Below are positions 13,385-51,400 of a stretch of 64,000 nt of DNA, piece after piece. The first letter of the stretch is position 1. Every line of letters starts with the position of its first letter. Where the stretch lies: NCBI GenBank assembly GCA_905178155.1, contig CAJINV010000001.1, positions 15,686,142 through 15,750,141 of the forward strand. Reading direction: 5' to 3'. Made by a program: the position numbers and the translations under genes. Source of the DNA: Amoebophrya sp. A120 (lineage: Eukaryota; Protista; Dinoflagellata). The notes below the pieces were generated by a model that saw only the letters and a program-made list of their open reading frames with translations, did not search any database and was not told where the DNA came from.

Positions 13385-16300
13385 CTACTCCTTCTTTCCC
13401 TCGTCCCGGTAGAACTTGGCTAAGTAGTTGTTTTATGCATTGCAAAAGTATCGCACTAGTATAAATCGCAATACAAATTTTTTCAGAAAAAAAATGGAAT
13501 TTGTAATGCTGATTTCGCTAAGACACAAGATTTGCCATGCGTGATTGCAATTAGTACGAGTACGATACTTTTGCATTGCATATGTTTTCTCTGGCGACCA
13601 TGTCTTTGCACTTGTAGTCCAGTACCAGTTCTCGCAGTAGCGTTCGAATCGCGATCGATACGTCTTCTTTGTCCCCAACCAAACTATCAAATGCAAAAAT
13701 GTCTGGGTCTGGAAAGTTGCCGGGTTTGTCATGCACATTTGCATGACCCAGGACGTCTGTAATGCATGGCCTAGCATCGCAGATTTTTAGAGGGCTTCCT
13801 GGACCTGATGTCTATTCCGCATGACAAGTGCCCTCCTCGCGTAGCACAAACTAGACTCCTCTTGCTGATCATGCAATACAGATTTTTTTAGAGTCCAAAG
13901 TTAGCATCACAAGCTCCAACCTTCCAGACCCAGACATTTTTACATTTGATACAACCCGGACGCTCGCAGTAGCTCTGCCAACACGTCGAAATCCGGCCCC
14001 CGATACGCGGCGCAAACCGCCGCAAGTGCGGCGGTTTCGTTCCCAACTAAAGAGCACGCCCAGACCGACGCAAACCGCTCGTGCACGACATCGCTGGTCG
14101 CGAATGAGGTAATATGCTCAGCGTTCTGTTTAGACGCTTTTGACGATGTTACTGCCGCTGCCAAAAAAACCTCCTTACTCGTAGTTACATCTGCACTAAC
14201 AGAATCGCTACCACCGCAACCGAAAAGTTCGGTGAGCTGATTCAGCGTCCGCTTGAATGTGGATTCGCGCTCGTCCACCGAAGGCGAAGCAGAAGCAGCG
14301 TTCTCGGCTGAGGCCGCGGCCTTCTTCGCTTTTTTCCTGGGGGTGCTGCTAGAACAAGATCCTTCACCATCTGGCTCGAACAGTTCCTCCAGCAACGTAT
14401 TGTTACTACCCACCACTTCCAGGTCGTCCAGCTCATTCGCGTCCCGTTGCCGCTTGTTCTGTTGGCTGTAGTTCAACATCAAAGCAGCACTGCCCGTTTT
14501 CGCGAGAAGCAGACTCTTCGGAGGCGCAACTGCGCGGTCTACCCCCTTCATCCGCGACCACGGTTCACCACTTTCATCAAACTGCTCCACCTGCTCTGTA
14601 AAAAAATCGGAATTCGCGGCCTGTTCCATCTTCTTCGCTGCTCCTTTGTAATCCTGGTACGCCGCGCCCTCCTTCGCCAACCGTGCCCCATAGGCCTTTT
14701 TGCAGAGGTCGAGAAACTGCGCTTTCTTTTTCTCGGCTGCCGCACGGACTTTCGCTACTTCCGCGTTGTGCGCCTCCACCACGCCGGGCGCCAGGCCCGG
14801 CAGGGGCTCAATCGGGTCCGGGAGCGGCACCACGTAGTTCGGGTCTTTTGGTTTTTTCATGTAGCCGCCCGCGTTCACGTGCGTCTTGCCGATGAACTTG
14901 AGGCGAAACAGGCACTCCACGCAGGTGTATCCCGTCGTGCCACACACCTCGTTCCGCACGCGCGCGCAAAAAGTTTCGAAATCCGGCGGGTTGTTCAATT
15001 CCTGGGCTATGGATCCCGATGTTTTCTTTTGGTTTTGCTTTCCCGACAAAATCACCGCCCGCAACGCCTCGCTCGTCAGCCTCTTGACGCTGCGTTTGTT
15101 CGTGACGGTGTCCGTCGAAGTGTACAGCTCGAGCAGCGTTTTTCCCGTGGGCTTGGTCTCGCCCGTGAGCTTGTTCGTTTTCGGCACCTGCATTCTTACG
15201 TCGAACTCGGTCTTGAAGTCCTCTAGCGTGGATGGAAATGTGAAGGGCTCCGCGGTCTTGCTGTGTTTTTCAAATCGGTTCACGTGCCGGCCCGAGGAGG
15301 CCGATTTCGGGAAGTGGTGTGGCGGTTTCAGCAACCAACAGATCGCGCAGAACTTCGAGGGCCGCATCACCATCACGGTCTTCAGCTCTTTGCGCGGGAT
15401 CGGCTGGAGAATGTAGTTGCTCACGATATCCCCAGAAAAAAACCCATGCCATCTTCCCACCCATCCATTTTTTGCATGAGATGAGACAATGTCTTCACTC
15501 GATTTGAAGATTGTTGTTTTGCAATGGCATCAAATTGAATGGGGATCATGGGTGTTTTTCCTGGATACGCGATGTCCGCATCGTATTGCTTCTTCCGCGC
15601 GTCGTAATCCTTCCACAGCTCCTGGATATACGGCTCGCACATTTTGTTGAAGAACCGGACCAACTGGCGGCGCAGATTCGCGCGGAAGCAGCTCGCGTCC
15701 AGTCCCGTTTTCGGAAACACCGTGGCGAGCACCAGAAGCAGGTACCAGTCGCGCTTGTCTTCCGGCAGTTCCGGCCGGGTGGGCACGTTTTTGCACACGC
15801 TCCACGCGTTCCCCAAGGGCTTGTCGCCCGCTTGGGTGATGCCGATCGCGGTCAGCACCAAACTGCGCAGCATGCTCGGGACCGAGTCGAACCGATTCGC
15901 GGGGGTGAGGGAAGCGACGTTCCGCAGGCGGTCGTGCAGGACCAGGGACAAGTCGAGCAAAATTTTCACCAGCACCCACTGCGCATTCTGAATCGTCAGC
16001 TCCCCACCGCCGCCGGTTTGCGTCGTCACGACGCGTTGCAGGGAGCTGGAGTTCTGGATCACCTTCGCGACCGCCATGCGCCACATCTGGACGTCGGGCT
16101 TGGCCGTCTCTTCGTCCCACGGGATGTAGGTTTGCTTCCTCATAAAAATCTCCTCGGCCTCACCGCCCTCCTGGACCGCGTAGCGCGCGAAAATGGGAAT
16201 CGGAATCACCGGCGCCGTGTTCTGCACGGGGCGGTAGCACAGGGTCGTCTTTGCGTGTTTCTCCCCACCGCCTTGCTGCTCGTTCAGGGCGATGTTCGCG

Positions 16301-19300
16301 GTGGCTTCCGGGATGGCAGCGATGTCGGAATACACATCTGCCTCGAACGTCAACATGCGGTTACTCACCCCACAAATGGCTGGAGAGATCGAGGTCGTAG
16401 GGGAAGCCGCCGCGGAGGTTGCTGCACCGGTAAAGGCACCGGAGCTAGTACCTTGGGTTTGGTTCTTTTGTCGCTGTAGTGGCTCCTGCTCAGAGCCAGC
16501 CGGGGAGATCGTCTTCATCTTGTTCTCCCTCTGTGCAATACGGTTTTCAACCGCTCGCAACAGCTTTGCGTCGGGTTTGGTGCGTAGAAAATCCTGGTTA
16601 GGGCCGCAGATCGCGAGCACTTGGTGCTCGAACGTCGTCTTGCTGTCCAAGGTATCGATGACCGCGTGCAAAATCGTTTGGCACACCTCTGGCTGGCTGT
16701 AGTAGTCGAAGAAGTCGTCTCTACTCATGTTCTTCAGCGTCGACAGGTTCGTCTTCGTAGTATCCGCCTTCTGCTGCGCGCGCGCACCGCGCTTGTTCTT
16801 GGCGGCCAGCTCGACGCATCCTACAGAAAAGCACACCCATAGATACCAGAAAAGGATGAGAATTTGTGTTGATGTTGCGGCTGCGGGTTTTAGTTTCACT
16901 GTATTAGTAGATTTGCGAGGTACTCAGCATGTGCATGATGAACTTTTTTCGTACCTACATCGCGAATTGCCAAAACCACGGTCACGACATGAATTTTTAT
17001 CAATATGGGTGTGTAAACTTGTTTTCTGCAGGATACCACGATCATTGCGTAGGTCGCGTTGTTCTTTCGCTTGCTGCTCAGGTCGAAAAATCGCGCCAGG
17101 TACACACACTTCCGCTTGATTTTCGCGCTCATCTGCTTCAGTTGCTGCGCAACGCGAACGGCCTCAAGGTCCCCGTTCTGCCAGGCGCGCGTCAAAGCGC
17201 TGATCGCAGGCGACGCTCGGTCGGTGTTCTCTTTCTGGGCGGTGGAGGCGGACTCGGTGGAAGGCACTGTTCGGATCGACATGGGCACATCTCCCTCAGC
17301 GGACGACGTTGCGGAAAGCAATGGCGCTGCGGCGCTGTCGCCACCACCTGAACTAGCAAGGGGTGTTTCATCTTCGGTTGTAAGAACGAGGGTTGCGTGC
17401 AGGGACAAAATCTCCGGCACGATCTGTTCGTTCCAGAGCGAGGCGAGCGATTTTCGGCATGATGATACTTGGCCTTCAAACGCAACCCACTCCAGGTGGC
17501 TCAAAAGACTTTTCAAATGCGGGCCCACAGTGCCCTCGAGCCGCTTGCCCAGTTCCTGCTCGAACGCGTTGTGCTTCCTCAACAGCAGTGCTTGCTCGCG
17601 CTGCTTCCGCAGCGTCGCAAGTTCTACTTCCCGCGGCGCAGAATGATCTTCAACTGGTTGTGGTTCATCCGTGGAGGGGGCCCCCGCAGATGTTGAAGTA
17701 GTTCCATTATTCGCAGTTCCTAGCTGGAGCTCCCCAATTCCCGCTGCCATGTCGTTGATCCGATTTTCTTCGTGGAACGCAGCTGTCAATTCCGCGAGTT
17801 TCGGCTTCATCTCCGTTTCCAAGCCCTGCAGGAGAAGCGGTTTGAACAAAGATTTGTCAACGAAGGCAGCCAGCTCGGAGAACGGAACGTAATCACCCGG
17901 AGGAATGAGAATCTTGCCCACGCAATCTACAAAGGGTCCGGCGGTGCTAGTCACAGAAGTACTCGCAGATCCGCGGGATGGTGGCGCAAAAGCAGCGGAC
18001 GATGTCCTAGTCGTTCCACAGAAGTCCCCCTCGTCCGAGAGAAGACCTCGAAAGGCCCAATCCCGCACATTTGAAAGCATCTTGGCCACTGTGATGTTGG
18101 TGCCGGTTGTGCCAGTGCCGTTTATATTATCTTCGTTCACGACCTCCGGTGATGTTGCGAACAATAGCTCTCCCGTTCCCAAGCCTATTTCTTCGCGCAC
18201 ACTCATTTTGGCCTGCCCGTCCGGTCGGCCGACAATGTGCAAGCGGTCCACCACGAACTCCACGGGCGCAAACGCCGGTGAGGTCGGGTCCGCGTCTCCG
18301 AAAATTTTCGTCGAAAATTGCTGCATTCGGGTGTCCGCATCTGCGGACGCGCACTGCCCGAGCGTCAGATGCGGATGGAAGTAGTCGGCGGTTCCTCTTT
18401 CCCCTGTTCGCGGTTGATCCGCGACGATTTTATCGGCACCGCAGTCCATCAGCGCTTGCTCGATTGCGTCTATCAGTTGGCTGAAAGAGCCTTGACTGCT
18501 GCAGCTCGGTGTGCCTTCCATCGGGTCGTCGAAGTCGGTGGTGTTCTCCTCGCCGCCTTTTGAGAGAGAGGACGACGTGGACTGCACCACGTACTCCGGC
18601 ACTAAATGTAGCGTTGCAGAGCCCTTTTGGCTGAACTTGCCGACCCGAGAAAACCGAATCTTGAACGGTGAAAGTTTTTTGCATGCAGCCTGCAGGCTTT
18701 TCAGAAGCGGGGACTCTTTCATCCCGTCTGTCGCGTCGTTTGCTTCGAACCCTTTTACAAAGGGGAACAAAAGGTTGACGTGCGGCATCCACTTGTGATA
18801 GGCCTTATCGTGGTCGCGACGGACGGCTTCGACCTTTGCATAGAAACTTGCCAGCTGGGGCTGCGCACCGGGCGGAATCAGGCACACGGCGGAGTGCCGC
18901 GACATCTCTTGCAGTTTCAAATTGGCTACAACCTTATTTTTCGATTGACTAGCTTTTGCTTTGTTGCTCAGGACCGAGCTCCCCTCCTTGCTATTTTTCC
19001 CTGATGCCGCCGGTCCGAAGTAGGTCACGCCCTCGGGCACGTGTTGGAAGACCTCGTCGATCAGCGTCGACCCGCAGCAGCTCGGCCCCTTGCGCAAGAC
19101 CCGCACCGCCGTCACCTGCGTCTCGTCGGCTTTGTTCACCACCACGGCCAGCACAACACACTTCTGTCCGAGGAGGAAGAATGGGTTCATGTCAATTTGC
19201 CCGATTGCCGCCTCGGCCGCGGCCTGGACATCGCCATTGGTCAGCTTCAAGTCTGCCCGGGTGTAGATCACGCAGAGGCAGTCCTCGAAAGCCCGCTTGG

Positions 19301-21972
19301 GTCCGTCCACGAAACTCATTGCTTCGTAGGGAATGCGGTTCGCGTCGTCGATTAGGAGCAAAGTAGGATTTTTCGTCGGGGACCATTTCGTAAGCGGCCC
19401 TTCCTCAATCTCCCCCATCATCAGCAAAACAGGTTGCTTCGAGTGCTTTGCGGCAGTCAACTGGCCGAGGAACGCTTTAGTAGTAGTATTCGAACTAGCA
19501 CCAGCAGAGGACGGCATTTTTCGAAACCCGTTGGCAAACTCGATAAAAATGGACACCTCCGTTAGTGATTTTTTTCCTTTGGCACTACCGGTGGAGGAGG
19601 TCTTCTGTTGTTCACCACCATGCTCTTCCGGATCGAAGAGTTGCGCCAGCGTCTTTGCAGCACCAACGGAGTTCGAAACCACAACCGGGCCAGGAACGTG
19701 CGCGAATGGATCTATTTTTACGTCCGCGTTCTGTTGATCTACTTTTCCCGTTGAGGTGGATATCCTGCTCCCAGCCGCCGGCGCTCCCTGCCTGTCCTGA
19801 GCTGTACCACTGGACGAGGCTCCTCCTGTGGCCGAATCACCATCGGCTTCTCCCGCTGCAGCTGCCCTACGTTCGATTTCGCGCAGGGACGGCGCGGTGG
19901 CGAAATACGCTTCTGCCGTCTCGAAGTAGTGTTTGTAGCATGCTGCGGACACCGGCGCAGACTTGTCGAGGCCGCGCGGGCAGTAGCCCTCCTGTGCAGT
20001 GTGAAGGTAAAATCTAAGTTTGTGGGTCCACTGTTCCTCATCCTGGCTTTCCCCCTCGTCAGACGCAGCTGGTTCTTCTTTATTTTCATCGGCCGCGTCA
20101 ATTTCATTTTCTTTCTCTGCGAACCGAGACTTGAGTCCGCTCAGAGACATCTTCAGCTTCTTTTTCTTCCGCATTTTTCCTTCAAACAGTAGCTGCCCGA
20201 GAGAAGTAGAGCCTCCGCCTGTGTTCCGCACAACCTGGAAACTTATCGCGCCATACGTGATACTTTCCCCAATCCGGTCGTTCATGGGTGCCGGGCAGTA
20301 ATAGCAGGTGTTCAACCCGTCGGAATCGACGTGCATCAGCATCACGATCGGGCGGTCACGACTCCACGCCTTCAGCTTTGTGCTCTGGTAGCCGGAAAAG
20401 AGCACGCAGCCGATTCCTTGTGACTCTTCCTCGGCACCGCAAGGGGGAAAAGGCAGACATTCCGGGCGGAACTCGAATTCGTGCACGAGCATCGGACACG
20501 TGGTCCCGCCCGGAACGTTCTCGCTGCCCAACTGGTCCCCACTCCCGAGAGCCAAGCTGCCGCTGAACCGCGTCCTCGAATAGGTTAGGTTCAAGCGCTT
20601 CTCGGAGCCAGCGAGACTCAAGTCGTAGTAGGTCGGCTTCTGCCGCGAATACACGACGAGGAACACTTATCAAAAGAAAAAAGCTCGTCACGATCACTCA
20701 TGGGCATGTTTGCAATACAAAATTGTCTGTCATGCGTAAAAATGCATCACAGCCACACTTCATAAGGGATTTCCCTAGTGTTTCTGCAATACAAGGCGAA
20801 GCTGTGATGCTAAAAAAATTTGTAATGCAAAACCTGCAACTTAGCGACTGTGACAAACTTTTTTCTCCCCATAACACTTTCCCGTCCTTCAACACAAAAT
20901 CTTCGCCGGGGTTCATGTATGGCGTTCTCAACTGTTACAACATTCACAACTGTTACATGAAATTTGTCACGCAAGAACAGCAACAGTGAAAGTGGCAATA
21001 TTCTTGCAGCTTTCGCATCACAGATTTTCCACAGATCATCATGCTGGTTAGCCCTTCGAAAATTTGTCATGCTAAGCACCTTGATCAAGTGGAGCGAGGC
21101 GGGTGGGAATTGTGCATCACAAATCCGTGTAACAGTTGAGAATGTAACAGTTGAGAACGCCATATCATGGGGCGGAGCATTGGGGTTTCCAGATCCACGG
21201 GAGGCTGGCAAGTCTTCAGCAAGGACTTCCCACTTTGCAAAACACCCGGTTTGGTTAAGTACTTCAGCGCCCGCTGGACCTTGTCATAGGCAGATTGCGT
21301 GTCGAAATTCAGGTCCGCAACCTGCTCAGCGAATTCCAGCCGCTGGGCGTACGTCTGGTAGCCGCAGTCGTGGAGAAGTGCAATGTTGCCGGACTTCGAC
21401 GTGCGCTCCTTCTGAAAAACAATTTCCCCAAAGGGTAGTGGTTGCGGACCGGTGCTGATGGCGTTATTCGCCTCTCCATTGCCATGTCTACTGTTGCTGT
21501 TCGTGGTCCCTTCTTGATGGCCTTGGTGTTGTGTCTGTCCAGGCGAGACGACACGAAAAATGAACACGTTCGAGCGGTATTTTTCTGCGATCTTTGTACT
21601 TGCCTCACCAGCGCTCAAGCCGCCAGCAACCGCAGCTTGCGCCTCCTCGTCGTGATCCGTGTTGCTGAGGTCGAGAACGCAGAAGAGAACCGCGGTCCCT
21701 TTTTTTCCCAGGTTATGCAAGTCGTTCCCACTGCTCCTACAAGTCATTGTTGTACCAGGCGAAGATATAGAAGCAGACGTATTTATTTTCAAGCCTAGCA
21801 CTTTCGAAGCGAAATACTCTTGAGTACAGAATACTAATTCCGCGTCGCGATTCCACGTATCGGTTCTGGCCGCCTCAATGGCCGATTTCAAAGTTGTGCT
21901 TCTTTTACCGTTCAGGGACTGGAGCCAAGAGGAGGGCACGCGCCCCCGCTCACTCGATTCCTGGGCACCCAT
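13385..21972 (-). CDS. Giant (~2442 aa) protein with internal 2H phosphoesterase (2'-5' RNA ligase-like) domain and C-terminal CxxC motifs; six non-canonical introns
   Basis: ORFs 21085-21972, 20698-20931, 16896-20666, 15421-16899, 13940-15460 and 13551-13736 join in frame when each TIR element plus one 5-bp TSD is removed. 8588-1259 = 7329 nt = 2443 codons ending in TAG at 13387-13385. 2H motifs: RHSAVCLIPP..WMPHVNLLFPF and FHPHLTLGQ. Confidence 0.8.
13434..13582. mobile_element. TIR element / non-canonical intron, family B
   Basis: TATGCATTGCAAAAGTATCGCACT...AGTACGATACTTTTGCATTGCATA; TSD TGTTT/TGTTT. Removal gives AREN-NYLAKF in frame. Confidence 0.9.
13685..13951. mobile_element. TIR element / non-canonical intron, family A
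   Basis: TATCAAATGCAAAAATGTCTGGGTCTGGAA...TTCCAGACCCAGACATTTTTACATTTGATA; TSD CAAAC/CAACC. Joins ASGL-VGDKE. Confidence 0.9.
15427..15567. mobile_element. TIR element / non-canonical intron, family D
   Basis: TATCCCCAGAAAAAAACCCATG...CATGGGTGTTTTTCCTGGATA; TSD CACGA/CGCGA. Joins DADIA-SNYIL. Confidence 0.85.
16817..17035. mobile_element. Degenerate TIR element / non-canonical intron, family D-like
   Basis: CATCCTACAGAAAAGCACACCCAT...ATGGGTGTGTAAACTTGTTTTCTGCAGGATA; TSD CGACG/CCACG. Joins AMIV-ELAAK. Confidence 0.75.
20668..20873. mobile_element. TIR element / non-canonical intron
   Basis: TATCAAAAGAAAAAAGCTCGTCAC...GTGACAAACTTTTTTCTCCCCATA; TSD ACACT/ACACT. Joins DGKV-FLVV. Confidence 0.9.
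20918..21164. mobile_element. TIR element / non-canonical intron
   Basis: Perfect 22-bp TIR TATGGCGTTCTCAACTGTTACA...TGTAACAGTTGAGAACGCCATA with a sub-terminal repeat of CAACTGTTACA; TSD TCATG/TCATG. Joins LRPM-NPGE. Confidence 0.92.
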
Positions 21973-23663: not shown

Positions 23664-23968
23664 TTGTTGGTCATGGAAATCGATCCCGCACACACGTAAC
23701 ACGATCGCCCCAAATGAAGCCTGTTCCATGATGAAAATGGCTGAAGGTTCTGACTCAAATCGACCCCGTGACATGCTGTTTCGTTCGGATTTTACCTAGA
23801 CCAGCCGTCCTTGGTAAAATCTTGAGCAAGGACCACGGTCCTGAGTAAAATCGTCAGCCAGGCTCTGTAGCTGGTGACGTGATCCTTCTCTCAAGTGATC
23901 CCAAGTAGCTCTCCAGATTGTCCGCGCTTTGGGCAGGTCTCCCGACCTATACCAAGCCCGGGTCAACA

Positions 23969-24090
23969 CTTTATCTGGGACCCCGTCCCCTGATCAAAAC
24001 TTTATCTGGGACCCCGTCCCCTGATCAAAACTTTATCCGGGTCCGCCGTCCTTGATAAAATCTTTACCAAGGCCCGAGGTCCTGAATAAA
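23969..24090 (+). repeat. ~31-bp tandem repeat (2 identical + 2 degenerate units)
   Basis: CTTTATCTGGGACCCCGTCCCCTGATCAAAA at 23969 and 24000, degenerate copies at about 24031 and 24062, related degenerate units at about 23790-23850. Confidence 0.8.
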
Positions 24091-24724: not shown

Positions 24725-27700
24725 TTACAGGTGAAGAGGAATCTTCCACACGTTCTCGATGACCGGAAACGCACTTCCCTCACCCGGACCGCCTTCAGAA
24801 TTGTACGCGAACATGATCTGGTGAAGCAAAATTTCGTTCCATTTGTCTTTCCAGCGTTTTGCTTTGGCCGGATCCATTCGTCGTTCCTGAAGTTGCAACG
24901 CCACATGCAGGGTGAAGTCCCGCTCTAGTTCGGTAGCATCATTGAGCTTCATGTGCGAGGTCGTAATTCTCTCGGCCAAACCTTCTCGAACAGCGGCATC
25001 TAACTCGTAAGTCGCAAACTTCAGCACGCGGCGAGCCGACTCCGAATCCTCTGCCCCGTGATCAGCAACAGGCTGCGTGTTAGTTTCAAAAAAAGCTACG
25101 AACTCGCCGAACAGCTGCGCGATATCGGCCCCACTGAGGTCCCGACGCAACGTTAGTGGCTTGCACTTTTGCTGCTCTAGGGCTACTTCTCCCGAGGCAC
25201 TTCCCGAAGTATTCCCCGCGCCCGTGTTTGCAGTCGTCACGGACGCACGTCGGAGCCCCATGGAATCAAAAAGAAAATAACTCACGCTCCCCTCGGTGTC
25301 ACGTTCTGCCCCGATGGTGAAGGAGTGCGAGAAGACGTCTAAACACACCTCGTGCAAAGGGTCACAGTACAAGTTTTCACGGTGCGAAGATTTTGCGGCG
25401 GGAGCCAGAAACTTTACCTGCACCGCAAAAGCGGATAGAACTCTAGCTCCAGAAGGCCACTCTTCTTGTTTCGCCCGTGAAGAAGGCCGCGATGAAGTAG
25501 ACCCTGCAATTTGAAGGGGTTTTTCACCTCGGTCCGGTACGATTTCCGATTCCACCAGCTTTGCATTTGCTATCCTCCGGGTCGTGCGCTCTCGCAGCAG
25601 TAGGAGTTCTGACACAAAGTCAGGAACCGCTACTGGCTGCAGCACTGTGTCCGTGAACGACCTCCCCCCCGTCAGAACCCAGGAGGCCAGGGCTGCGCCG
25701 ACGTTGGCGGAAAACCGAAAATTGTGGCTGATGTCGGCGATAAACGAGTCGTAGCGAACAGCTGCCTCGTTAACCACCAGTTCCTCCAGTTTCTCTGGGT
25801 CGATTCGCATTTCTGCAAGCGAAGCGTCCGGCTTGAGCATGACGTTTTGATGCAGTCTGGCTTCTCCGTTTGTGACCTCCACCAGAGCCCCTGCACTGGG
25901 CACAGTTCCGTGGGCGACAGTGACTACAGGTGCAGGAACCGCTGGAGCGGGACCGCCCCCACGCTTGTTACCTTCTTGAGCACCCCACACAGTACTAGCG
26001 TTCTCCGTTTCAGTTGTTGTTGAAATGGACTTCACCAATGCCAGGTCGTACCAGGTCATTTCGGCCTCGTTCCGCTCTGCTCCCTCCTGCGAATACGTCA
26101 ACTCTTCAATGTCGGTGTAGAACCCGAAATTGCTTGCTAGAAAGTAAAACGCGTAGTCGGGCCGAGGGAAAATTGTCTGCTCCTTCGCGGCTTTTTCCCC
26201 GCCAGCAAACGCCTCCGTCGTCTGGTATTTGAACAGCTTCTCTGAGTACACGTTTTCGGTTATCAGCTCCGCGCGGAGATATGCATTGCAAACATGTCTG
26301 GATCTGGAGGAATGCGTATGCCTATGCGCCGGCCAACACCAGGTCACAAAAAATAAACCTGTCTGTGACTATGCAAAAGCTCCTGTTCACTTTTTGTTAA
26401 GATCACAAAGAATAAGAAAGAACGACCATCAATGTATAGCATCGATTTCCAAGAGCAGCACTCCTGAACTAGTCTACCAGTGGGGCATTGATATGATTGT
26501 CAGAGGACAGCTGCACGACAAAAACGTGCATTGTCGATGTCGTTGTCCCTTTGACCACGGCGACATATTTGCGTTTGTGTTTGATAGGAGAAATGCACTT
26601 GCGATGGTCGGCGTGGAAGTACTTGGCGCGACCACCTGCTGGCTTAGCGCAGACCCTTTTTTGAACAGACACTCTGTCCACAGCTTGTAGACCTGCTCGC
26701 GCCATTGCGTTTCGGAAATCACTTTTCTATTTGTATTTTCATCCAGACCGACATTATCTACGTATTCTACGTCATGTCTGGGATGAAACGGCCTTCCATG
26801 CGACTCAAACCACCAAGGGAAGGACCGCAAAAGGGTGCGAAAGGGGTTCTGCGTTACGGGGCCAGCTGTTGCTGTGGTCTGACTTTTCTGCTGTAGCTGC
26901 TCTAACCGCAAATCGTTTTGAACGACGGATCGGAAAAACCGCAGGATGTTGGCTTTCGGAAAGACAGCTTGCCAGAACCTATAGAAAAAATCCTTCGGAT
27001 AGTAGGCAGCCATTTGCAGTCCGGCGAGACCGCGCGTAGGTGTGCTGGTAGAGGCTCCGCCTGCCCGTCGTGAAGACGCCAAAAGCGGCTGCACGGCTTC
27101 CGCTGCCCGGGCCCCCAGAAACGTTTTCCGTGCCTCCGCAGTCCTCTCTGGAAATTCCACTAGCCTGCCGCTTCGCAAGTCGTACCAGTAAGGGAGCGCC
27201 GGTACCTCGTAGTCATTAGAGTAAAACGGGCCATTGTCGTTCGCGAACTTCTTCGGGTAGCAATGGCCGCCACAAAAATGTGTCTCAACCTCGGCTGCCA
27301 CTCCGATGGGCACGCGAGGAAAGGAGCATGAAGAGATGCCAGTTGTTGACAACGGTGGTGCTATTGACAGCGTCGAGGAGTCATCTTCCATGTTCGTCGT
27401 GTAGGGTCTGCTGACTGCGTCTCTCGCAAAATGATCCACCACGTGGTGCGAATATAGGTCCACATGCCCCTCGTCAAGAGCGTCTTCTACTTCTCTTCCG
27501 CTTGTGGTCCTCGTTCCACAGTTGTCTTGTGCACTTCCCAAATACCCAAACTGTCTGATTGCACTTTTGTACACGTTGCCACTTTTCTCGTCGGTTTTCA
27601 CGAATGGGTGATCCAAAGCGCGTGCAAGCGGGGATCTAGGCAGTAGGGGTCCTCCAAAACCAAAAAAACTTCCTTGACCCTCCGGTCCCGTGCCGGCAAG

Positions 27701-33507: not shown

Positions 33508-36500
33508 TCATGTCCATACCGTCCTCCACGGAGCAAGTAAATGAACCATCATGACCACACTACTGAGAGACAGGAGGAAAGCCGTCGAGAACTCTTCTGC
33601 ACGTCTCCTCCCCCCGGTCGCTCCTGATGCATCTATCGCTAGCGTCACACCCGACTCGCCGTTTCCGAGAGAAGGGCCCGCGTTTCCCGGTAGAATATTG
33701 CTTCCCGAAGAGGATCCAGTGCCGGAATCTGACGACCCACTCGATGTGGGAGGGGTGTAAGTCATCGGCGTGATGCTTCCCTCCGACACCGTGGCGACCG
33801 CAAAGTCCGTCCCTAAATCGGAAACCAGCTGCGTTTGCAAGTTCTGCTGCAAGGCTGTCAACCCGGTGCTGGGAAGCGTCTGCAAAGTGGACGCCAGCGC
33901 CGATGCGTCGGAAGTACTCTGTGCGCGCACCTCGTAAATAGCTTCCAGCTGTCTCTGGTTCTGCGTCTGCAGGTTTCGTATACTTGATTTTATCGACGGG
34001 CTGCCTTGTTGCTCTTGGTGTGATATTCGTTCTGCTTTTCCGGTTCTTGATGCAGTGTGTGACTGTCCAACATTTCGTGCACCATAATCATCTCCTGCAG
34101 GCTTTACGGATATTTCCCTTTCGGTTGTTCTTACACCATGCTGAGTGTAGTCATCCTTATCTAGTACGGCATCATTGCTAACTTGGGTCTCAATCTCTTC
34201 CAGATTTCTCACCGTGTAATGTTGCTGTGAGCCTACGACCCCTGTTAGCACAGCAGGGGACATCGATTCTGCCAGTGCTTTCGGTCGCGGCTCCGGCTTC
34301 GTCTTCCTTATGTCCAACCGGTCCGGAGCCGGGTACCGCTTCCGACTTTTCCTGTTCTTCTCGCGATCGACAGGGAGCTTCTGGGCGTTTCGCATCCCTT
34401 TGAAGACAACGGAGAACATTTCTTGCTGCTTCAGAGCCCGCGTGGTACTACCAGTCCACCTTAACATTCGATGGCCCTCGGTTGGATCGGCGATGCCCGC
34501 GATTTGGTGCTGGCCGGGAAAGACGCTGGAGGATTCTAACGCTGGCTCCACCGAATCGACGATCTCGTCGTCCCGGAGCATTTTCGACGTCGCCGCGCCA
34601 GTTTGCACAAACCGCACGATCAGCACGGTGATTTGCAGCGGAGACACGTTCAACGTCGCCGCCAGGGCCGTCGCGATACTCGGGCCGATCTGGGTGGTCA
34701 GCGCGCTGCTCACCGTCGACACGTCGTTCTGCATACTGATGATCAACGAGCCCGAGACCGACGGACACTGCAGGTCCGCGGTGTTGGTGCCGCCCCCGGC
34801 GGCGACGTTGGCCGCGGTCGGGTTGGCGCTCGACACCGTCGCGCACCCGCCCCAGGGTTTCGGCGTGGTGGTGCTGGAAGTTGAGGACAGCGTGGTGGTG
34901 ATCCGGGTGTTGTTCTTGATGCTCTCGGCCAGGTTCATCTGCGCCTCTATGTCCGCCTTGGTCACGATGGTGGTACCCGCCAGCGCGACGGGCGAGCAGT
35001 AGTCCTGCCACTTGGGACATAAACCGCAGGCCATGTAGCAGGACTGGTACTGCGCGTTCGTCCAGCCGAGCTGCACCGCGTCGACCGCGCACTTCTGGTC
35101 GCAGAGCTTGCATTCCGGCGGCACGCACATCCCCGGTCCTTGCAGCGGCTGACAGAAGTCCGCGTAGTGGGCGCCGCAGGACTCGGGGCACGAGGGGTAC
35201 GGGACGGCGTCGATCGCGTATCTGGTTCTGCAGGCCGTCGGTACATTCGCCGGGTCGTACTGCGTGGTCGTCACGGTGGTTGTGGTCTGGCCTCCTGACA
35301 GCGTGGGTGCCGCTGTGGTGCTGCAGGTCAGACACGGCAACGCCGGCGGTTTGGCCGTGGTCGTCGCCGAGGGGTCGTAGTTCGGGTCAAAGTGAGGCGT
35401 CGTGGAAACCGGCGTGTTGCCGCAAAACGACCCGGCGGGACAGGTTTCGCAGCTGGCCCAGCAGGTCTGAGTTATCCAGTGCAAAAGTATCGCACTGGCA
35501 CTCTTCTCTTACAAATACTGGTCTTGCATGACATATCGTAATCTAATCGAGTTCTTTAGCTTTACCTGAATCTGCATGACCAATTGATTCCATTCTTCTT
35601 TTTGGAAAAATAATTGCGATATATACTAGTACGATAGTTTTGCAAAATGCATATGGATGTCGAAGTACGGGTTGGCCTGGAATTGCGAAACGCAGTTCGT
35701 GTCGCATTCGTAGCACCCCGGGTCCACGCACATACCCGGGCCGGCGTTGGTCGAGCAGAAGCGCGCGTAGTACTTGTTGCACGAGGCTGGACAGTAGGCC
35801 GGGGTGTAGCCCCAGGTGTAAACGGTTTCGCAAGCCTTATCCTGCACCACCGAACTGCAGATGACGCAGTAGTCTTTACACTTTTGCTGTCGGCAGTCCG
35901 CGGTGCTGCAGTTGTGCGAGTCCATGCACTGCTTGCACGTCGAACTCACACACATCCCGCTGTTTGTCGCGCAGTAGTTCGGAAAGAAGTGCTGGCATAT
36001 CAAATGCAAATATGTCTGAGTCTGGAAGGGCGTAAACTTGTCATGGATGTTTTCCATGACCCATGAGGTCTGGAATGCGGGGCCTACCATGACAGACTCT
36101 GTGCGGTCTCTGCCATGCCCATCCTGCATGAGAAGCTTCCTCCCAACTTGGTCGAAAGTGGACAGCTTTTGGGACTTATGCAACACAGAGCTTTGCATGA
36201 TTGAGATTTAGCATGACAAGTTGGAATCTTCCAGACCCAGACATATTTCCACTTGATATGGCAATAGGTCGGGCAATTTGCGGCGGAACTTTGTCGCTGC
36301 AGGCAAATCTCCGTGGACCGCCCGTAGAAGGCCGCGACCGGGAAACGCGTTTCCTTTTCCACCTGCGAGAGCGCAAGTTCGTTCTCGTGCAGCCCGCCGT
36401 ACAGGTGTGCGGACTTCACGCGGTTGCACACCTCGGAAAAGGAGTTGCACTCGACCAGCTGCGTGTTCGCGATGTTGGCAGACAGGTCGTTTGTATTGGG

Positions 36501-38842
36501 AACGAAGTTCTTGTTCGCGTCACACCGCGCGATCCGCACTTCCTGCCGACTGCCACTTTCGTATCGGCCGTACACGTCGTAGTAGTCCGTGCCGCAGACC
36601 ACGCGGTAGCAAGACGCGGCGATCCGGTTGTTCGCGAACAGCGACACTTGCGTACTGGTGATGGTGCCGAGAGTATCACAGGAAAAAAGTGTTACAGTTA
36701 CACATTTGATGCAATTACAGCATCACAAAGTTGGTCCGCATAGCAAAGAAAACTTGTGATGCGCAGACTCTAAGGGAAAACACCTATGAAATGGGGCTGG
36801 GAAGCATTTCCTGCATGACAGAGGTTGTCTGTCTTGCTGGTCTTGCATCTGAGTGTGTAACTGTAACACTTTTTTCTCACGATAGAGAGTGTTGAAGCAC
36901 TTGCTGTCCGAAGTCCCGGCGTTGAACATCAGATTCTGCAGATACGCGTTGGTCAACGCACAGTCCCCGGTATTCGCTGAGTACGCGTACCGACGCGGGC
37001 AGTGGTCCAGCATGCCAAAGCTCCCGCCTTTCTGCGCGTTGTTCGCCCAGTATTGAAACTCGGTCGGCAGCGTTTGCCCCGTGCCGCTGTCCTCCAAGGC
37101 GCAAAAGCCGAGCTGGCGCCCCCGTCTATGCGGAGCGCAGCCCGTGTCGGTGGGCACCGTGCAATAGAAGTTCCGATCCACCGCTACAGCGGAATCTGAC
37201 ACGCACTCGTCGGTCACGAAAGCGCAACCGCGTTTGTAGCCCCAGTGCAGGTTTTCAATCGCGATGGTCGCGCGACTGTAGTCCGCCTGGTACCACCCCG
37301 TGTCTTCCGCGAAGGCCAGGGAAATCGTGGAAACGAACGTCGCGTCGTCCGGATTCCCGGTTGCCGCAAACATCTCGTTGCTGTGTATCCGCTGCTCCCA
37401 GTGGTTCCCGTAGGCAGAGCAGCGACTGGTTGGCGTGTTCTCCAGTGGCATGCCGGTGAGAGAGGGGCAGTTGAAATATTCCCTCGCTTTCTCCACCACC
37501 TTCGGGGTGCGGATCTCGTACTGGCAGTGCGGGTGGTCGGTCAGGCAGTTCTGGAAATTCGCCCCGTTGTACTGTTGCTGCAATGCCTTGGAGCCGTAGG
37601 GGCACGTGCACTGGTTTAGCTTGAAATTCCCGTGCTCAACAATACCGAGAACTTGGCCCGCGGAACCGTCCTCATGCAGGCCGGGGTACCTGCGTGAAGT
37701 ACTTGACAAAAATCTTCATGTTTCAGCTGTGGTTACCACAAAGCGTCGTTAACAAAAAAATTTTCCACCTTCTGAGCGAAAAAGACCGACTTTCATCCAG
37801 TCCTATTTTCGAAGTTTGCACCTTGCTAGCTACTTAGTACGTCTAGTAGAAGAGAACAATGATGTTGAAGCGCCGGATTCCATATAAAGTACCCCATATA
37901 AAGTACCATCGTCTCCCCGTGTTGTAGGGTAGGTTCCACCTTCCGTAGCAGTCGAACGCATAGTAGCTTCGGTCTTGCAGCTTCAGCGTGCCGTCGTCGT
38001 TCACGAAGTTTGGCCAAAGCAACTCGAAAAAAAACAGCACGTGCCCGATCTCGTGCACGACGTTGGCATAATTGAAGTGCAAGTTTCGCTCGACGTTCAA
38101 GTCGCCGTAGCCGCTGTTCGTGCACAGAGTGACCGACCCGGCGATCGGCCGCCCGCACTGGTCGACGTAGCAGGAGGCGGCCGCGGCGAGCGTGTTCCCC
38201 GTACAGAGATACTCGTCGTCAATGTCGATGAAGAGGTACAAATCGATGTTGTCGACGAGGAAGTTCCTCGGCGTCGAACTCGCATCCAACGTGCTGGTCT
38301 CGTACCCGCAGGCGCGGAAAGCGCTATCGCGGTCCAAAGGGGTGCTTTGCGAGTACCGACGGGTCTTCAGCGCGCGCGACCAGAACGCGAGCGAGTTTTT
38401 CATAAGCGTGGTCTCCAGGTGGTTGGTCCAGCTTGCGGGAGCGTTGCCGCGGCCGTAGGAGACGATTTCGTACCTGAAGATGCATCAGGAAAAGACATAA
38501 AAAGCAAAAGGCATGAAGCAAAGCTACGTGCTTCATGAAACAAAAAACAAAAACTGCTTCAATTGTCATTGTTTCAACGTCAACTATATCGTTATCTTAC
38601 CCTATCCTTATCGGCCCCCAGCTCGAGCCAGTATGTAGCTGAGGACAGGTAGGCGCTGTCGTCGACGCGAGAGATCTGCCATGGTAGTGCACAGGCAACG
38701 GCTCCTCCATGACGCGCGGTGCTGTCGCAGTTACGAGTGTAACAGAACGTTCCAGACACAACACGCCGCACCAGAAAAAAATGCAAGCAATCAATAACCG
38801 TTCCAAGCGTTGCGGGAACGTGGCCAAGACGAAAGACTCCAT
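33508..38842 (-). CDS. Leishmanolysin/GP63-like zinc metalloprotease (M8) with Cys-rich repeats, Thr-rich stalk and C-terminal hydrophobic (GPI-like) tail
   Basis: PIRI, LAAAASC..DQCGRPIAG, HEIGHVL (HExxH), AREYFNC, HWEQR, NEMF, ISLAFAEDTGWY, WGYKRGCAF, DHCP. Exons join through two GT-AG introns and three TIR introns (36674-36884, 35998-36258, 35473-35653). Confidence 0.88.
35473..35653. mobile_element. TIR element / non-canonical intron, family B (opposite orientation to 13434 and 42395)
   Basis: TATCCAGTGCAAAAGTATCGCACT...AGTACGATAGTTTTGCAAAATGCATA; eroded TSD TGAGT/TGGAT. Joins PYFD-(I/T)QTCW. Confidence 0.82.
35998..36258. mobile_element. TIR element / non-canonical intron, family A
   Basis: TATCAAATGCAAATATGTCTGAGTCTGGAAG...CTTCCAGACCCAGACATATTTCCACTTGATA; TSD TGGCA/TGGCA. 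Joins PTYC-QHFFP. Confidence 0.92.
36674..36884. mobile_element. TIR element / non-canonical intron
   Basis: TATCACAGGAAAAAAGTGTTACAGTTACAC...GTGTAACTGTAACACTTTTTTCTCACGATA; TSD GAGAG/GAGAG. Joins CFNTL-GTITS. Confidence 0.92.
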
Positions 38843-40497: not shown

Positions 40498-44257
<3,760 letters not shown>

Positions 44258-45447: not shown

Positions 45448-48400
45448 TCACAACGAAAATTTCGAATCCCTTATTTGTTCAGCACTCAGGGCAAGGTCTC
45501 CCACGTAGTACAAGTCTTCTAGCTCCTCATCCGATAGCCCCATTAGTTCTGTCTCGTGACACAAATGCTGCGACGACGGCCAGGCGCGCTCGCGCCCCCG
45601 GGGACTGAGCATGTTTTCAAATGCAAATGTGTCTGGGTCTGGAGGAAACTTGTAATGCTGCCTTGGGACTAGTGAATGCTTTGTAATGCCCAGCCAAGCA
45701 TGAGAAATGTCTGCGCTTCGTTGTGTTGCGTTTTTCGCATGACAGCCTGCGTTATTGCATGACAGACAAAAGGGCCTCTTCTTGGACACGCATCACAAAC
45801 TTTTTGGTCATCCCAGACAAGCATGACAAGTCTCGCAATCCACCAGACCCAGACATTTTTGCATTTGATACACGTACTCCTCGCACAACCGAAAAAGGTC
45901 GTCCACGTGCTCGAAGTCTTTCGCGTATTCCTCCTGCACAATGACAACGGAAAGCCAGCCAAAGTACACGAGTTTGTACCCAAAAGCATTTCCCAGCAGT
46001 TGCAGCCCCCGTGCGGACGCGGAGTAGGCCTTGTGGTGGCCATGTTCCCTTTCGTACACTTCCGAGTGTTTTTGTTGGGCATTTGTCACCGCGGTTCTCG
46101 TATCCAGGAAAAAACACCCATCCCCATCCATATTTTGCATGACAAACACGGCAACTGATGCATGTTTTGCATGACAAATTGGATGTGGATGGGTGTTTTT
46201 TCCTGGATATCTCGTCGGCCTCTCGTACTTGGGGATCAGGCTGAGACCGATCGGGTATCAAAAGGAAAAATCCCCCCTCCCCCTGTCGAAATGCAAATCT
46301 GTGATGCGGGATTTGTCTACACAAATCGGCTTTGTCTTGCAGTAGAGGACTGCAGGCAGATACAGAGCCTGAGTAGGGGCGTTTTGGTGTAGGCGCCTCG
46401 CAAGGCGGGCACTTCCTCTGTAGGCCATCCAGCATTACAAATTGCCTGCAGAACGCAGCGGGGTTTTTCGATTTGCATTCTTGCAATGCAAAGACGATTT
46501 GTGGTCACAAACCAGCATCACAAATTTAAATTTTCACAACTGTCCCGTGTTGGTACTTATGGGGAGGGGGGATTTTTCCTCACAATATCGGAACTCGGTA
46601 GCGGTCAGGATAGAAGTAGCCGTTACTGGTTTGGATCAGCAGTACCCGGGGTTGAAACCATTTCGCCAGGAGTAACCTTCGAAGCACGTGCCAGTCGTAG
46701 CCGTCGATGTGTAAGGAGAACAGCTCAAACTTTGTCGGGACGGATTTTGACTTCAAAAGGTCCAAAATGTTCTCCGGCGTCACCTTGGCTGCGCTGTAGT
46801 CAATGCGGCTCAGGGATCCTATCATGTCAATCATCCGCCCGTCCCAGTTTTCAAACGCCTGCAAATAGCGCGTCTGGTAGTCGCCGGCCAGGCGGCCGAT
46901 GCCAATATCGACGAAAAATTTCGCGTAGGGTGAGGGAGAAGCTGAAGTGGAGCGGGACAAGGCATTTATTTTCTCGCAATTGAAAATGGAAGGATAGAAG
47001 TGTGGTTGCGGCTGAGCAGGGGAGTGATTTGGTCCAGCGCCTTGGCCTGACTTGATGTTACTCATCCGACCCGTCCTTTTTTCCTCGTCCTTCTCTTGTT
47101 GCAAATAGATAGTCCGGTAGACATTGACCAACACAGAGTCGAGCGCGTCCAGACTGTATCGACAGTCCGGCAGCGGAATGGATATCATTTGCAAAAACGT
47201 CCCCACCCCAGAGTCAAGATGGGGATTTTGCAACACAAACCTGAAAGTTTTGGGAGCCACGCATGACATCAAGTGGCAGGCTGTAGTGTAATGCAGTTTA
47301 GCAAGGGACGCCGCAGAAAAAATCCATCTCCTTATCCTGTTTACAGCATTACAACTTCCAAAACACGATAGGAAATGCTTCTCATGGGGATGCGCATTAC
47401 AAATGCTCTTGTGCTTGCAGATCTGCATGACAACTCTGGGGTGGGGATGTTTTTGCACAGGATAATGGAGTAGGCGTCGTCCGCCCACAGGTCGATTTCC
47501 AATTTGGATGTAGTCGTGCCCTTGTGTCGTGTCCTCTCGGGACTTACTTTCGAAGACCCTTGCAGTGCCGACGCGAGATGCCCGTCAGGAGTAGAGCAAT
47601 TTGCCTCTGTTGCAAGCAATTTCTGTGCGGTTTCCACACTGCGGATGCGGTTCTGTAGGCACGACGCGTAGGACTTGAAAACGAAGCGGTTTAGACTCGT
47701 TTCGCGTGCGATCGCGCGTTTCAGCGCCTCCTTTCCGAGTAAGTGGACGAAGTGAAACTTCTTGCCGAACAAGTGCAGCGCCCTCACACCGAGGGCGAGG
47801 TACACGAGCAACGCGTCCAACTGGCTAAACAGAGATCGCCGTTTCTCGAACACATTCGTGATCGCGGTCAGAACTTTTTCGACCAGGAGCGCAGCTCCTG
47901 AAGCAGGAAGATGAAGACCTCCGTTCGACGGTGTTGATGTGGCAGGGATTGGGACACCAACGGGAAGAAACAGGTCAAGCGAAAGTTGTGCAACCGACAG
48001 AATCCACTGTAGATAGGAATTTCTTGCAACCCACAGAAAGCGCCGGTGTCTGTGGTGCCCGTCGGCAGCCTCAATGGTGTGCGTCGGCGCCTCTCCCCGC
48101 TTCCCCAGGAGGCGCCGCACGGCCGCTGGCGGCTCGACTAGAGGAAATGTGTGCGACCAGGTAGTCACTTCGACGTCCTTGTTCTCCTCGTGTGCCGCAG
48201 ATAATTCAATATTGCCGATGTTGTCGTCCATTCCGCAATGCAGTCGTGTGTTCAGGTCTGTCGTGTATTTCATCGAGTGCGGGTCTCCTGGTGCGGATAG
48301 AATCGACGACTCCGCCTTCCGCAGCGCGCCGCCGTCTCGGTTGTGGTAAGGAAGGACCAAGCTGCCGGGAAAATCGCAGATGTGGCGCACGCCGTTCAGC

Positions 48401-51400
48401 CCGTGCTCCGTCACATTCTGCATACGCTCGATGAGAAAATGCTTCTCCGACGGGCCGCGGGCGAGGAACTCTAACCTGGATGCACGTCACGAAACTGTTG
48501 TGGGCGTCCACAACTTTTGGAAAAACAAAAAGTGAGAATGACCATCACGGATAAAACAACTAAACTACATTATAAGAATCGCTCTAAATCTAAGTGGAAA
48601 ATCAAAATCAGTGCAAAAGATGGACAAAGAGCTACAATTGTGTTTCGAAGCAGCCGAACCTAAACAAGTGTATGAAGTCTCAGTGATGTTGTTCTTGTTG
48701 AAAGAAGCAAATTATACCGTATTTCAATACCGAAGTATTTGGTCCCGAACGTGAACTGTCATGGCATTTAGGCGGGTGTAGTAGAGACTCAGGCCACGAT
48801 TCAGAGCCGTGGGGATTTCCGGCGTCACGGAAAGTTGTCTTTCTTTCGACCTTTGCCAACTTCGATTGCCGAGCGAAAAGCGCCACAAATCCCACAAACT
48901 ACTGGCGAATCCGAATCTCCCTTGGCCGTAAAGCTTCTTCAACTTTTCTTCGACGAGCAAGTGGGCCTCCTCCGTCTCTGTGTGGTCCAAAAATCCAAAC
49001 GTTTTCCAAATCACTGCGATGTCTGCGGGCTCTAAAAAAGTTCGTTTCACTTCGTCAATCAGCAAAAGCCCAAGGAGAAAGCGGAAAAGCGGCTCAACCA
49101 GGAAGAGCTGATGGCTTACTTCTCCATCTGTTCGCTTTCCTTTCACTTTTTCCCAGGTATTCCTCGTGGTCGTGGCGGAGAAACCGGACAAAGTTGAGGA
49201 CTCTTGGTCTTTATCTGCGTTCACAGCTGTCACGTCACGCAAACACAAGCGACGGACCATCAGCTCGTGGTGCACGTCTTCTGGCTCGGTGTTAGGCCTA
49301 GAAGAAACCTCATCGAAAAAATCGAGCGTCTCCGAAATCACGAAGCTCTTGACCAGAAAAATCAGCGAACGCAGGTCGGAAACTCGTACGCTACTGAAGT
49401 TGATATTATTACCGCGTGAAGCTGTTTCGGTAGTTTCCGTAGCCGTACCCGTACTGCTTGGTGCGGTGTTCGCGAATTCGATAGCGGACGACATTATATT
49501 CCCACCAGATGATAACATTTCGTCGTCGTCTACCTTCGACGCTAAAGGACCGGTCCGCCCCTGCTGCAATGCCACTATTTCTTGGTCGGGAACAAAACTA
49601 TCAGCGGCAAACGCCGAATTGCGGCGCTGGTTCTCCTGCGTCCGAACCGTTCTCTTCGGAGAGCGTTTGCGGCCACCCCAGTGACTGTGACGGGCGCACT
49701 GACTCTCTCGACACGGGGTGTCATAGGCGTCTTGTTTTCCGCGGTCGCCCTCGTGGTCCGTCGAACTGGGACGGGGGACCACAAGCGGCCCTGATTTTGA
49801 TTGTGAGGACTGCGTGCTGCTTCTGGTGTTTCCATCCCTATCCCCAAACTCCCAATCCCGAATGGCTGTGAACAATGCTCCTTCTGTGCCAATGTCGTGC
49901 TCATCAATCGCGTTCAGCAGTTCCTCGCTCAGGCGGGCACTGCGTAGCTTCCGACAAAACGAGTCCTGCCCAGAAGAGTTGTTCCGCCGGCCGTGTGTTG
50001 TTGATACTCCTGCACCGGGTGCAGAGGCGACAGCGTCCACAACAGAAGTTGATGTCGGGCTAGCTGCAGCTTCTGTGCCTGCGTTTATTCGTATTTCCCC
50101 TTTGCTCATCTTCAAGAGCTTGCGCAATTCCTGCACTTTGGCAGCTGCGCGTGTCGACGCAAAGAGTTGTACCGTCGAGAAATTGTCCACCTCCTTGTTC
50201 AGATCGTCCCCCGCCCTGATTTCGGCTTCGGCAAGCGTCTTTGCGAATGTCCGCGCGTCTTCCAGCTCTTGCGGATCGAGCAAATGCGCAACGCTTTGGA
50301 TTGCCCGCAAAACCTCCGTCTGGTGCTCCGGCGCGTACCCCAGCACGGACAGAGTTCCGATCACAAAAGCGACAACCAAGATCGCGACGCACACGTACTG
50401 ATGGAACGCCAGTGCGCGGCTGCGTCCTCGTGTGCAGCACACACACCGTTCCACTTTCCGACAGGTATCAAATGCAAAAGTGTCTGGGTCTGGAAGAGTG
50501 CAACTTGTTATGCTCAATCTGACGCAAGCAAGAATCTGTGTTGCATGATTACCAAAAGTCGTCCAGTTAGTTTTGACCAAGTCGGGAGGGAATTTCTCGT
50601 GCAGGATAGTCATGAGAGAGATCGCACAGAATCTGTCATGCTAGGTCCTGCATTCCAGGCCTCATGGGTCATGGAAAAGCTGCATGACAAATCGCGCACT
50701 CTTCCAGACCCAGACATTTTTGCATTTGATAACAGGCCTTTCGGCACCACCGCATCTTCCTGCTGTCAGGACTGTACCAGGGCACCTGCGTATCATAAAG
50801 AAAAACTCCCCCTCCCCATATTGAAAACGCATCCGTCTGAAAATTTGTGATGCACATTTGTGACCTCAAATCTTGTCTGTCTTGCAAGAAGGCAAGTCCA
50901 GAGAGCCCCCTGCATTTTGCAGGCGGTTTGTGATGCTGTTGGGCTTAGGGCATACACGCTTGTCATGCTAGGCGCCTACGTCAAAACCTCTCGACCGAGG
51001 CTTGACATATGCCTGCAGTCCTCTACTGCAAGACAAATCTGATTCGTGTACGGAAATCCAGCATCAGAAACTTCGTTTCGATATGGGGAGGGAGAATTTT
51101 TCCTTTTGATACTGCGGCTCCGCCCGGGCCTCTTCCAACCGCCGTCGCTCGCGGTCCTGCTGCAGAGCCTGCTGCTGGTCTTCGGGAACGGACCCTGGTC
51201 CTGGTTCGGGAGGTACAACCCCGAACGGAACCGGGTTGGGCGGCATTCTGATGTAGGTCTTCTCCGCAGAGGAGGCTGCAGATTGTTGTAATACCGGAGA
51301 AGCAGATCGCTTGCGCGGGAACGGAACTCCAGTCAGCCCGCCTCCAGATGGTGCCTGAGGCCGCAACAGCTCCTGCCTTTGGTCGCGGGCGGAGGGGCTC

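Follow-up and report, generated by a model that had tools for sequence, protein, structure and literature searches.

Introner elements of Amoebophrya sp. A120 lie in both orientations relative to the transcript and may be removed by a directional, altered spliceosome

We analyse a 64,000-nucleotide (nt) stretch of contig CAJINV010000001.1 from the dinoflagellate Amoebophrya sp. A120 (the window), which holds 17 elements of 109-332 nt, all within minus-strand genes. The elements begin with TAT, finish with ATA (the 3' ends of two have decayed, to ATG and AAA) and carry inverted repeats, and we find that the same element families sit in both orientations relative to the transcript. We lean, at slightly better than even, toward a joint reading. 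In it the elements, non-autonomous DNA transposons bounded by TAT...ATA inverted repeats and by a 5-base-pair (bp) target duplication, sit in exons either way round and are removed exactly, along with one duplicate, by a directional, altered spliceosome reading signals in the repeats; the branch point and the role of the spliceosome are the parts that we infer.

The available portions of Farhat et al. 2021 (PMC7789003) describe introner elements in A120 that resemble MITEs (miniature inverted-repeat transposable elements), with a repeat made of TAT, seven variable bases and at least three A, direct repeats of 3-5 nt and no canonical splice sites; their exact borders and removal mechanism are left open there, and the spliceosome is described as nearly complete, with U1 small nuclear RNA not detected. 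In the window, the inverted repeat TAT-N7-AAA has its 5' TAT in 16/16 elements and an A at position 13 in 16/16, and each element is bordered by a 5-nt direct repeat, perfect in 11/17. The host is A120: a protein with the label A120 matches exon 15574-16809 at 100% identity, and an aminopeptidase gene at 29.4-31 kilobases (kb) has A25 as its closest named relative (63%). Judged by these sequence characters, by removal that is not of the GT-AG type and by the presence of repeated copies, the window elements are the introner elements of Farhat et al. 2021 (PMC7789003).

To establish orientation, we cut 40 nt from each end of every element, so that the inverted repeats cannot drive a match, and compared local alignment scores in the same and the opposite sense. 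The interior of the family A copy at 50466 is the reverse complement of the copy at 35998 (28 same vs 218 opposite) and is likewise opposed to 13685 (27 vs 139), while 13685 matches 35998 directly (109 vs 32). The family C copies 46256 and 50791 are inverted relative to each other (62 vs 220) and belong to one gene, both being on a single 4473-nt RNA contig. A weaker inverted pair is formed by 20668 and 36674 (25 vs 73), and the family B copies 13434 and 42395 agree in sense (64 vs 17). The family A and C relations are those that an initial annotation of this DNA had proposed, and the strings it quoted are present at their positions. It had also placed 35473 inverted relative to 13434 and 42395: one 70-nt end (matching at 81%) and global alignment (58 same vs 110 opposite against 13434; 51 vs 83 against 42395) uphold this, but the interior is too decayed to confirm it, with a local score of 18 same and 43 opposite against 13434 and a family-B interior profile score of 6.9 bits, lower than that of unrelated elements. 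That all host genes are minus-strand holds at 17/17 host junctions (codon-model margins 8-47, the model being partly trained on window exons), and is backed by Pfam for the leishmanolysin-like and DEAD-box genes and by two public proteins, P0001 and its ortholog P0002, for the gene at 13.4-22 kb.

The elements are listed below in window coordinates and transcript sense, together with one ordinary intron. The RNA evidence consists of assembled contigs derived from complementary DNA (cDNA) of one sample (runs X1-X4, presumed RNA); the raw-read runs X9 and X10 contributed 47 and 9 reads, most of them partial.

13434..13582, minus strand: family B introner, 149 nt, duplication AAACA/AAACA; RNA joint 13428>13583 skips 154 = 149+5 (run X4, one contig, side 83); P0002 is colinear.
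13685..13951, minus strand: family A introner, 267 nt, duplication GGTTG/GTTTG, oriented as 35998; RNA joint 13679>13952 skips 272 (X2, side only 20 letters); P0002 is colinear.
15427..15567, minus strand: introner, 141 nt, duplication TCGCG/TCGTG; read through in P0001; the Ala of P0002 agrees with position 4 of the upstream copy.
16817..17035, minus strand: introner, 219 nt, 3' end decayed to ATG; duplication mismatched at position 4; joined across in P0001 and P0002.
20668..20873, minus strand: introner, 206 nt, weakly related to 36674 in opposite orientation; joined across in P0001.
20918..21164, minus strand: introner, 247 nt, atypical, with a perfect 22-nt repeat and most of the A-run absent; joined across in P0001.
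26280..26586, minus strand: introner of 307 nt, decayed, with the 5' arm displaced by some 6 nt and no pairing predicted at its ends (probability 0.0); RNA joint 26274>26587 skips 312 = 307+5 (X3, side 135).
35473..35653, minus strand: family B-like introner, 181 nt, inverted relative to 13434 as qualified above, duplication ATCCA/ACTCA; an RNA contig departs from the genome at 35467 (only that side displayed); DNA contig continuous.
35998..36258, minus strand: family A introner, 261 nt, in the leishmanolysin-like gene; placed by alignment and restored frame, no RNA joint displayed.
36674..36884, minus strand: introner, 211 nt; placed by its ends and restored frame, no RNA joint displayed.
42395..42534, minus strand: family B introner, 140 nt, in the DEAD-box helicase gene; Pfam and restored frame, no RNA joint displayed.
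45615..45870, minus strand: family A-type introner, 256 nt, 3' end decayed to AAA; alignments conflict on its orientation, no RNA joint displayed.
46101..46209, minus strand: short introner, 109 nt; placed by its ends and restored frame, no RNA joint displayed.
46256..46587, minus strand: family C introner, 332 nt, duplication TCCGA/CCCGA; an RNA piece starts at 46587 without mismatch, so the upstream copy is kept at position 1 (only that side displayed).
47183..47464, minus strand: introner, 282 nt; RNA contig pieces abut at 47176/47464, a skip of 287 = 282+5.
48472..48730, minus strand: ordinary GT-AG intron, 255 nt, leftmost joint 48473/48729 (RNA contig); four introners lie in the same transcript, upstream and around it.
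50466..50731, minus strand: family A introner, 266 nt, inverted relative to 13685 and 35998; the RNA contig departs at 50460.
50791..51111, minus strand: family C introner, 321 nt, inverted relative to 46256; the RNA contig resumes at 51112.

Eight of these (15427, 16817, 20668, 20918, 26280, 36674, 46101 and 47183) extend the set initially annotated, and the ends of 46256-46587 and 45615-45870 are corrected.

The elements are removed in both orientations, as had been claimed. RNA contigs skip exactly one element plus five nucleotides at 13434, 13685, 26280 and 47183, and they part from the genome sequence at the edges of 35473 and 46256. For the neighbours 50466 and 50791, the 54 undisplayed RNA letters before 51112 are the length left once both elements are removed with five nucleotides each. 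An RNA contig with skipped elements also lacks the GT-AG intron (minus strand) and is therefore messenger RNA (mRNA), and a DNA contig spans 35473 unbroken. The gene at 14-21 kb has almost no RNA cover; here P0002 aligns gap-free across four junctions. All six gene segments tested in the window become open frames after excision of the element and 5 nt. Overall, the same excision joins the frames at 150/152 sites where both flanks could be framed independently (69/69 in one orientation and 55/57 in the other), and read-through is possible in only 5/301 elements, so that 296/301 would break the frame if kept.

How evenly are the two orientations used? Using a family-A end as query we collected 128 loci (L001-L128, 391 kb) from one related assembly for which there is no RNA, so the tallies describe that assembly plus the window copies rather than A120 genome-wide. 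These loci hold 327 elements; only a 5-nt duplication fits, perfect in 246/327, and shuffles of 40 loci yield 0 elements where the real sequence yields 139. A codon model gives a confident strand for 261/307, concordant in 59/60 multi-element loci; 46 of 331 locus elements without a confident strand were dropped, and 21 singletons stand outside the family tally. Relative to the transcript, the families divide 73:67, 14:17, 13:13, 7:8, 8:3 and 4:7 with no inconsistent link, an about even division. One locus carries the same element with the same flanks twice in inverted form on one contig (L068:506-739 and L068:3091-3324), a local inverted duplication or an assembly artefact, and this duplicate was taken out of later element counts.

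The insertion sites suggest where this evenness comes from. In logos of the empty sites, T stands out at -15 and G at -13, counted from the middle of the duplication, with the mirror counterparts C at +13 and A at +15, each at about 50%. The motif reads approximately A-A-T-N-G on either strand, stops 10 nt short of the 5-bp duplication and is present in the window and in L001-L128. It is one-sided (the two sides are anti-correlated, with 12 sites having both, p=1e-9), and which side bears it depends neither on the direction of the transcript nor on how the element is oriented (62 vs 58, family A). This points to motif-guided insertion at the DNA level, which accounts for the even orientations; a transposase would bind the one-sided T-N-G on either DNA strand, 10 bp from the cut, and insert the element either way. 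Such a target motif at fixed distance resembles Tn7-type targeting. We reject the idea that the flank motif reflects pairing between exons, since its two sides are anti-correlated. A second motif, TGTVATGC/GCATBACA, is found in 292/301 elements, mirrored at both ends and absent from the flanks, and is likely a transposase site. The elements thus have the traits of MITEs and of terminal-inverted-repeat DNA transposons, being short and non-coding, with inverted repeats, a fixed duplication and strand-blind insertion; the repeat motif was found in none of the viral and prokaryote contigs searched.

We now consider what marks the cut. The initial annotation took neither orientation to carry canonical signals of its own, and this is borne out: assuming exact removal, GT-AG ends are possible in 9/233 elements against 8.7 expected from random exon sites, GT/GC-AG ends in 11/233 at best, and such ends in 0/17 window elements with the upstream copy kept, so the elements do not have canonical U2 intron ends. 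The duplication logo is flat, with plain coding composition and no enrichment of G or AG at any position, and a purine directly follows the duplication in 157/298. Mismatched duplications (68/301) reveal which copy survives removal. The upstream copy is kept at position 1 in 46256 (RNA) and L068 (stop in the other copy), at position 2 in 13685 (RNA), at positions 2-3 in 35473 (RNA piece end), at positions 3-4 in L075 (Val of ETF-beta, E=0.013) and at position 4 in 15427 (Ala in P0002). At position 5 the codon scores are too weak to tell the copies apart, L026 has no homolog and the homologs of L033 have Thr and Val, neither being a candidate residue; TA directly before TAT occurs 2 times against 7.2 expected, too weak statistically to use. 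The six sites that retain the upstream copy support an intron that is either TAT...ATA plus five bases or N-TAT...ATA plus four. In both cases the cuts sit unevenly about the stem, and the 3' end obeys no sequence rule.

This bears on the earlier proposal that recognition is symmetric and depends on the terminal stem and/or palindromically placed motifs. Palindromic ends do explain removal in both orientations, but symmetry of recognition is not supported: besides the asymmetric cut, decay at the two ends differs with the direction of transcription. Since the families sit both ways, the same physical end acts as a 5' or a 3' end, which provides a built-in control for the bases that are read. 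Among 302 elements, the 5' TA departs 1/604 times and its 3' mirror 13/604 times (p=0.0017), whereas at position 3 the decay is reversed (7 vs 2; interaction p=0.001); at stricter strand margins the 5' TA has 1 departure against 9-11 at the mirror. Measured against a neutral yardstick of 3.7% taken from the duplications, the constrained bases are the 5' TA (1 departure vs 22 expected) and the first A of ATA (2/301 vs about 11 expected). Dependence on the stem fares no better. Most elements are predicted to fold into a long terminal stem, but G-U pairs are not in excess over A-C mismatches (244:238; 102:92 for private changes), sense is not clearly stabler than antisense (154/301, p=0.08), the arms are often mismatched at positions 4-10, and 26280 is cut exactly despite having no predicted terminal pairing. 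If a polar machine reads symmetric signals, both orientations are accounted for and recognition need not itself be symmetric.

By analogy, the most likely polar machine would be an altered U2-type spliceosome as described in the available text on Fritillaria (PMC13326754). Owing to the mirror-image ends, an element in either orientation starts with TAT-N7-AAA and ends with TTT-N7-ATA. The six informative sites support a 5' cut at TAT or one base before it, so that positions 1-4 of the upstream duplicate stay. The donor would be the invariant UA and the branch point the first A in the ATA at the end, and the 3' cut would be placed by distance, 4-5 nt beyond ATA, in any sequence. The terminal hairpin may draw the ends together and appears not to define the cuts. 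In its boldest form, to which we give somewhat less than an even chance, the A120 spliceosome would have been rebuilt without U1, with a UA donor, a branch A in the 3' repeat, a ruler that removes the duplication and no acceptor dinucleotide, alongside T-N-G-guided insertion. If so, any insertion would be silent whatever its sequence, phase or direction, and a second splicing code would operate beside GT-AG introns in the same transcripts.

Several points weigh against a directional spliceosome. A free last dinucleotide (as well as a free +1 base, if the cut is one base before TAT) is difficult to reconcile with known exon-ligation chemistry. The polarity test is post hoc, pooled after inspection of 16 positions (best single p=0.015), and element detection favours intact ends. 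Terminal pairing may matter after all: the changes of the last A are A>G in 6/7 cases, keeping a U-G pair, the 3 departures at constrained sites are also wobble-compatible, and for 13/17 elements of the window terminal pairing is predicted at a probability of at least 0.7. Finally, the RNA contigs come from a single sample at depth 3-21, and the tallies are drawn from the related assembly.

The pairing evidence would suit a separate, non-spliceosomal machine that would be guided by the terminal hairpin together with a short motif, cut at set offsets and then ligate, as has been proposed for the nonconventional introns of euglenids; this comes nearest to the idea in the initial annotation, and we regard it as unlikely while the strongest of the alternatives. 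The long predicted stems, the wobble-compatible terminal changes, the dispensability of GT/AG and the failure to detect U1 in the available account of A120 (PMC7789003) speak for it, as do knock-ins in Euglena, which in the accessible part of that work give a paired-motif code with unequal offsets (PMC12501133). The balance of G-U and A-C, the lack of a clear stability advantage for sense, the mismatched arms and the exact cut at 26280 speak against it, and retention of position 4 of the upstream duplicate disfavours a strictly two-fold symmetric cutter.

It is improbable that the junction is set by matching of the two 5-nt duplicates or that the cDNA skips are template switches of reverse transcriptase at the hairpin. 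A hairpin with a direct repeat is the setting of such artefacts, and all RNA evidence is cDNA-derived; however, 296/301 elements would break the frame if kept, including one in mid-domain of the DEAD-box helicase, and the skipped form is the assembled form across the 4473-nt contig. Homology-guided joining must face duplications that are mismatched in 68/301 elements and an upstream copy kept every time in RNA. Excision from DNA in some life stage has very little probability: TA-bounded transposon remnants in exons do look like the internal eliminated sequences of ciliates, but the DNA contig, at single-copy depth, crosses 35473 without a break, and the contig that skips elements is mRNA. A DNA joint table (run X5, 90% likeness) is dominated by other copies and is compatible with a minor excised fraction. 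Cryptic GT/GC-AG sites, a separate set for each orientation, have as slight a chance and are largely refuted by the chance-level counts given above and by 50791, where the GT..AG pair would take one base too many for the 54-letter count, even though 15% of A120 canonical introns show the same repeat layout in the available text of PMC7789003.

Turning to the host genes, 13385-21972 (minus strand) is one gene of 2442 amino acids with six introners and a 2'-5' RNA ligase-like domain (Pfam); the public protein P0001 runs into the missed 15427 element and is cut short at 1954 amino acids, where P0002 continues colinearly, and the gene model is corrected here. At 33508-38484 (minus strand) lies a leishmanolysin-like (Peptidase_M8) gene; its long tail is rich in cysteine, and it contains three introners. 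Two apparent genes at 45448-51486 (minus strand) are one transcript, joined by the GT-AG intron near 48472-48730, which removes a stop; this gene has no Pfam match. Elsewhere in the window, RNA-contig joints 22944>24143 and 22921>24357 have neither GT-AG nor TAT ends and span 31-nt tandem repeats at 23791-24090; they are seen in one contig each and may be artefacts. A 1.08-kb foldback at 61377-62455 has 456-nt arms that are 86% identical and internal 25-nt repeats; it lacks TAT ends and a clear duplication.

Since 2021, the way in which A120 disposes of tens of thousands of non-canonical introns has been an outstanding question. The anatomy added here comprises sites blind to orientation and sequence, two cut registers, an adenosine 7 or 8 nt from the 3' end as candidate branch point, and a target motif; if our reading is right, a spliceosome can dispense with both GT and AG, which bears on the conversion of transposons to introns. 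The element class is already published: the A120 introners of PMC7789003, as far as its available text goes, share the organism, the TAT-N7-A(>=3) repeat, the direct repeats, the MITE-like character and the lack of canonical sites, and where that account has 3-5 nt repeats and an open border we find 5 nt only and a cut in two registers. The literature searched contains no statement on the orientation, cut register, end polarity or target motif of A120 introners (the supplement figures S19-S25 of PMC7789003 being judged by their legends), so these are undescribed within that scope.

Among other systems, and again by the available parts of each source, IS3EU/GingerRoot DNA transposons share TA..TA termini but usually have a 6-bp duplication against 5 here, which makes them a lead only, as no transposase is seen here (PMC10045372). 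Polarella glacialis has transposon-derived introns of which several classes are spliced in either orientation (Roy et al., 10.1101/2020.10.14.339549); there, and in Aureococcus as cited there, a G-starting donor and/or an AG acceptor is recruited from the duplication or the element, with a reported bias to one orientation, whereas here we see no such bias, no sequence demand on the duplication and no sign, in its G or AG content, of a recruited splice site. Euglenid nonconventional introns are likewise MITE-like, with near-end inverted repeats, no GT-AG and unequal motif-to-cut offsets, and are distinguished by a CAG/CTG motif, pairing shown to matter, a purine after the 3' cut and circular products (PMC12501133, PMC11282704); the A120 elements have TAT/ATA end logos, no sign of selection on pairing and no strong need for a purine. 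In Fritillaria borealis, introns that are similarly MITE-derived, with inverted repeats, duplications and non-GT/AG ends, are removed by a U2-type spliceosome (PMC13326754, PMC11282704), and where Fritillaria prefers AG-AC/AT ends and has an intact U1, A120, in which U1 was not detected, leaves the 3' end free (PMC13326754, PMC7789003).

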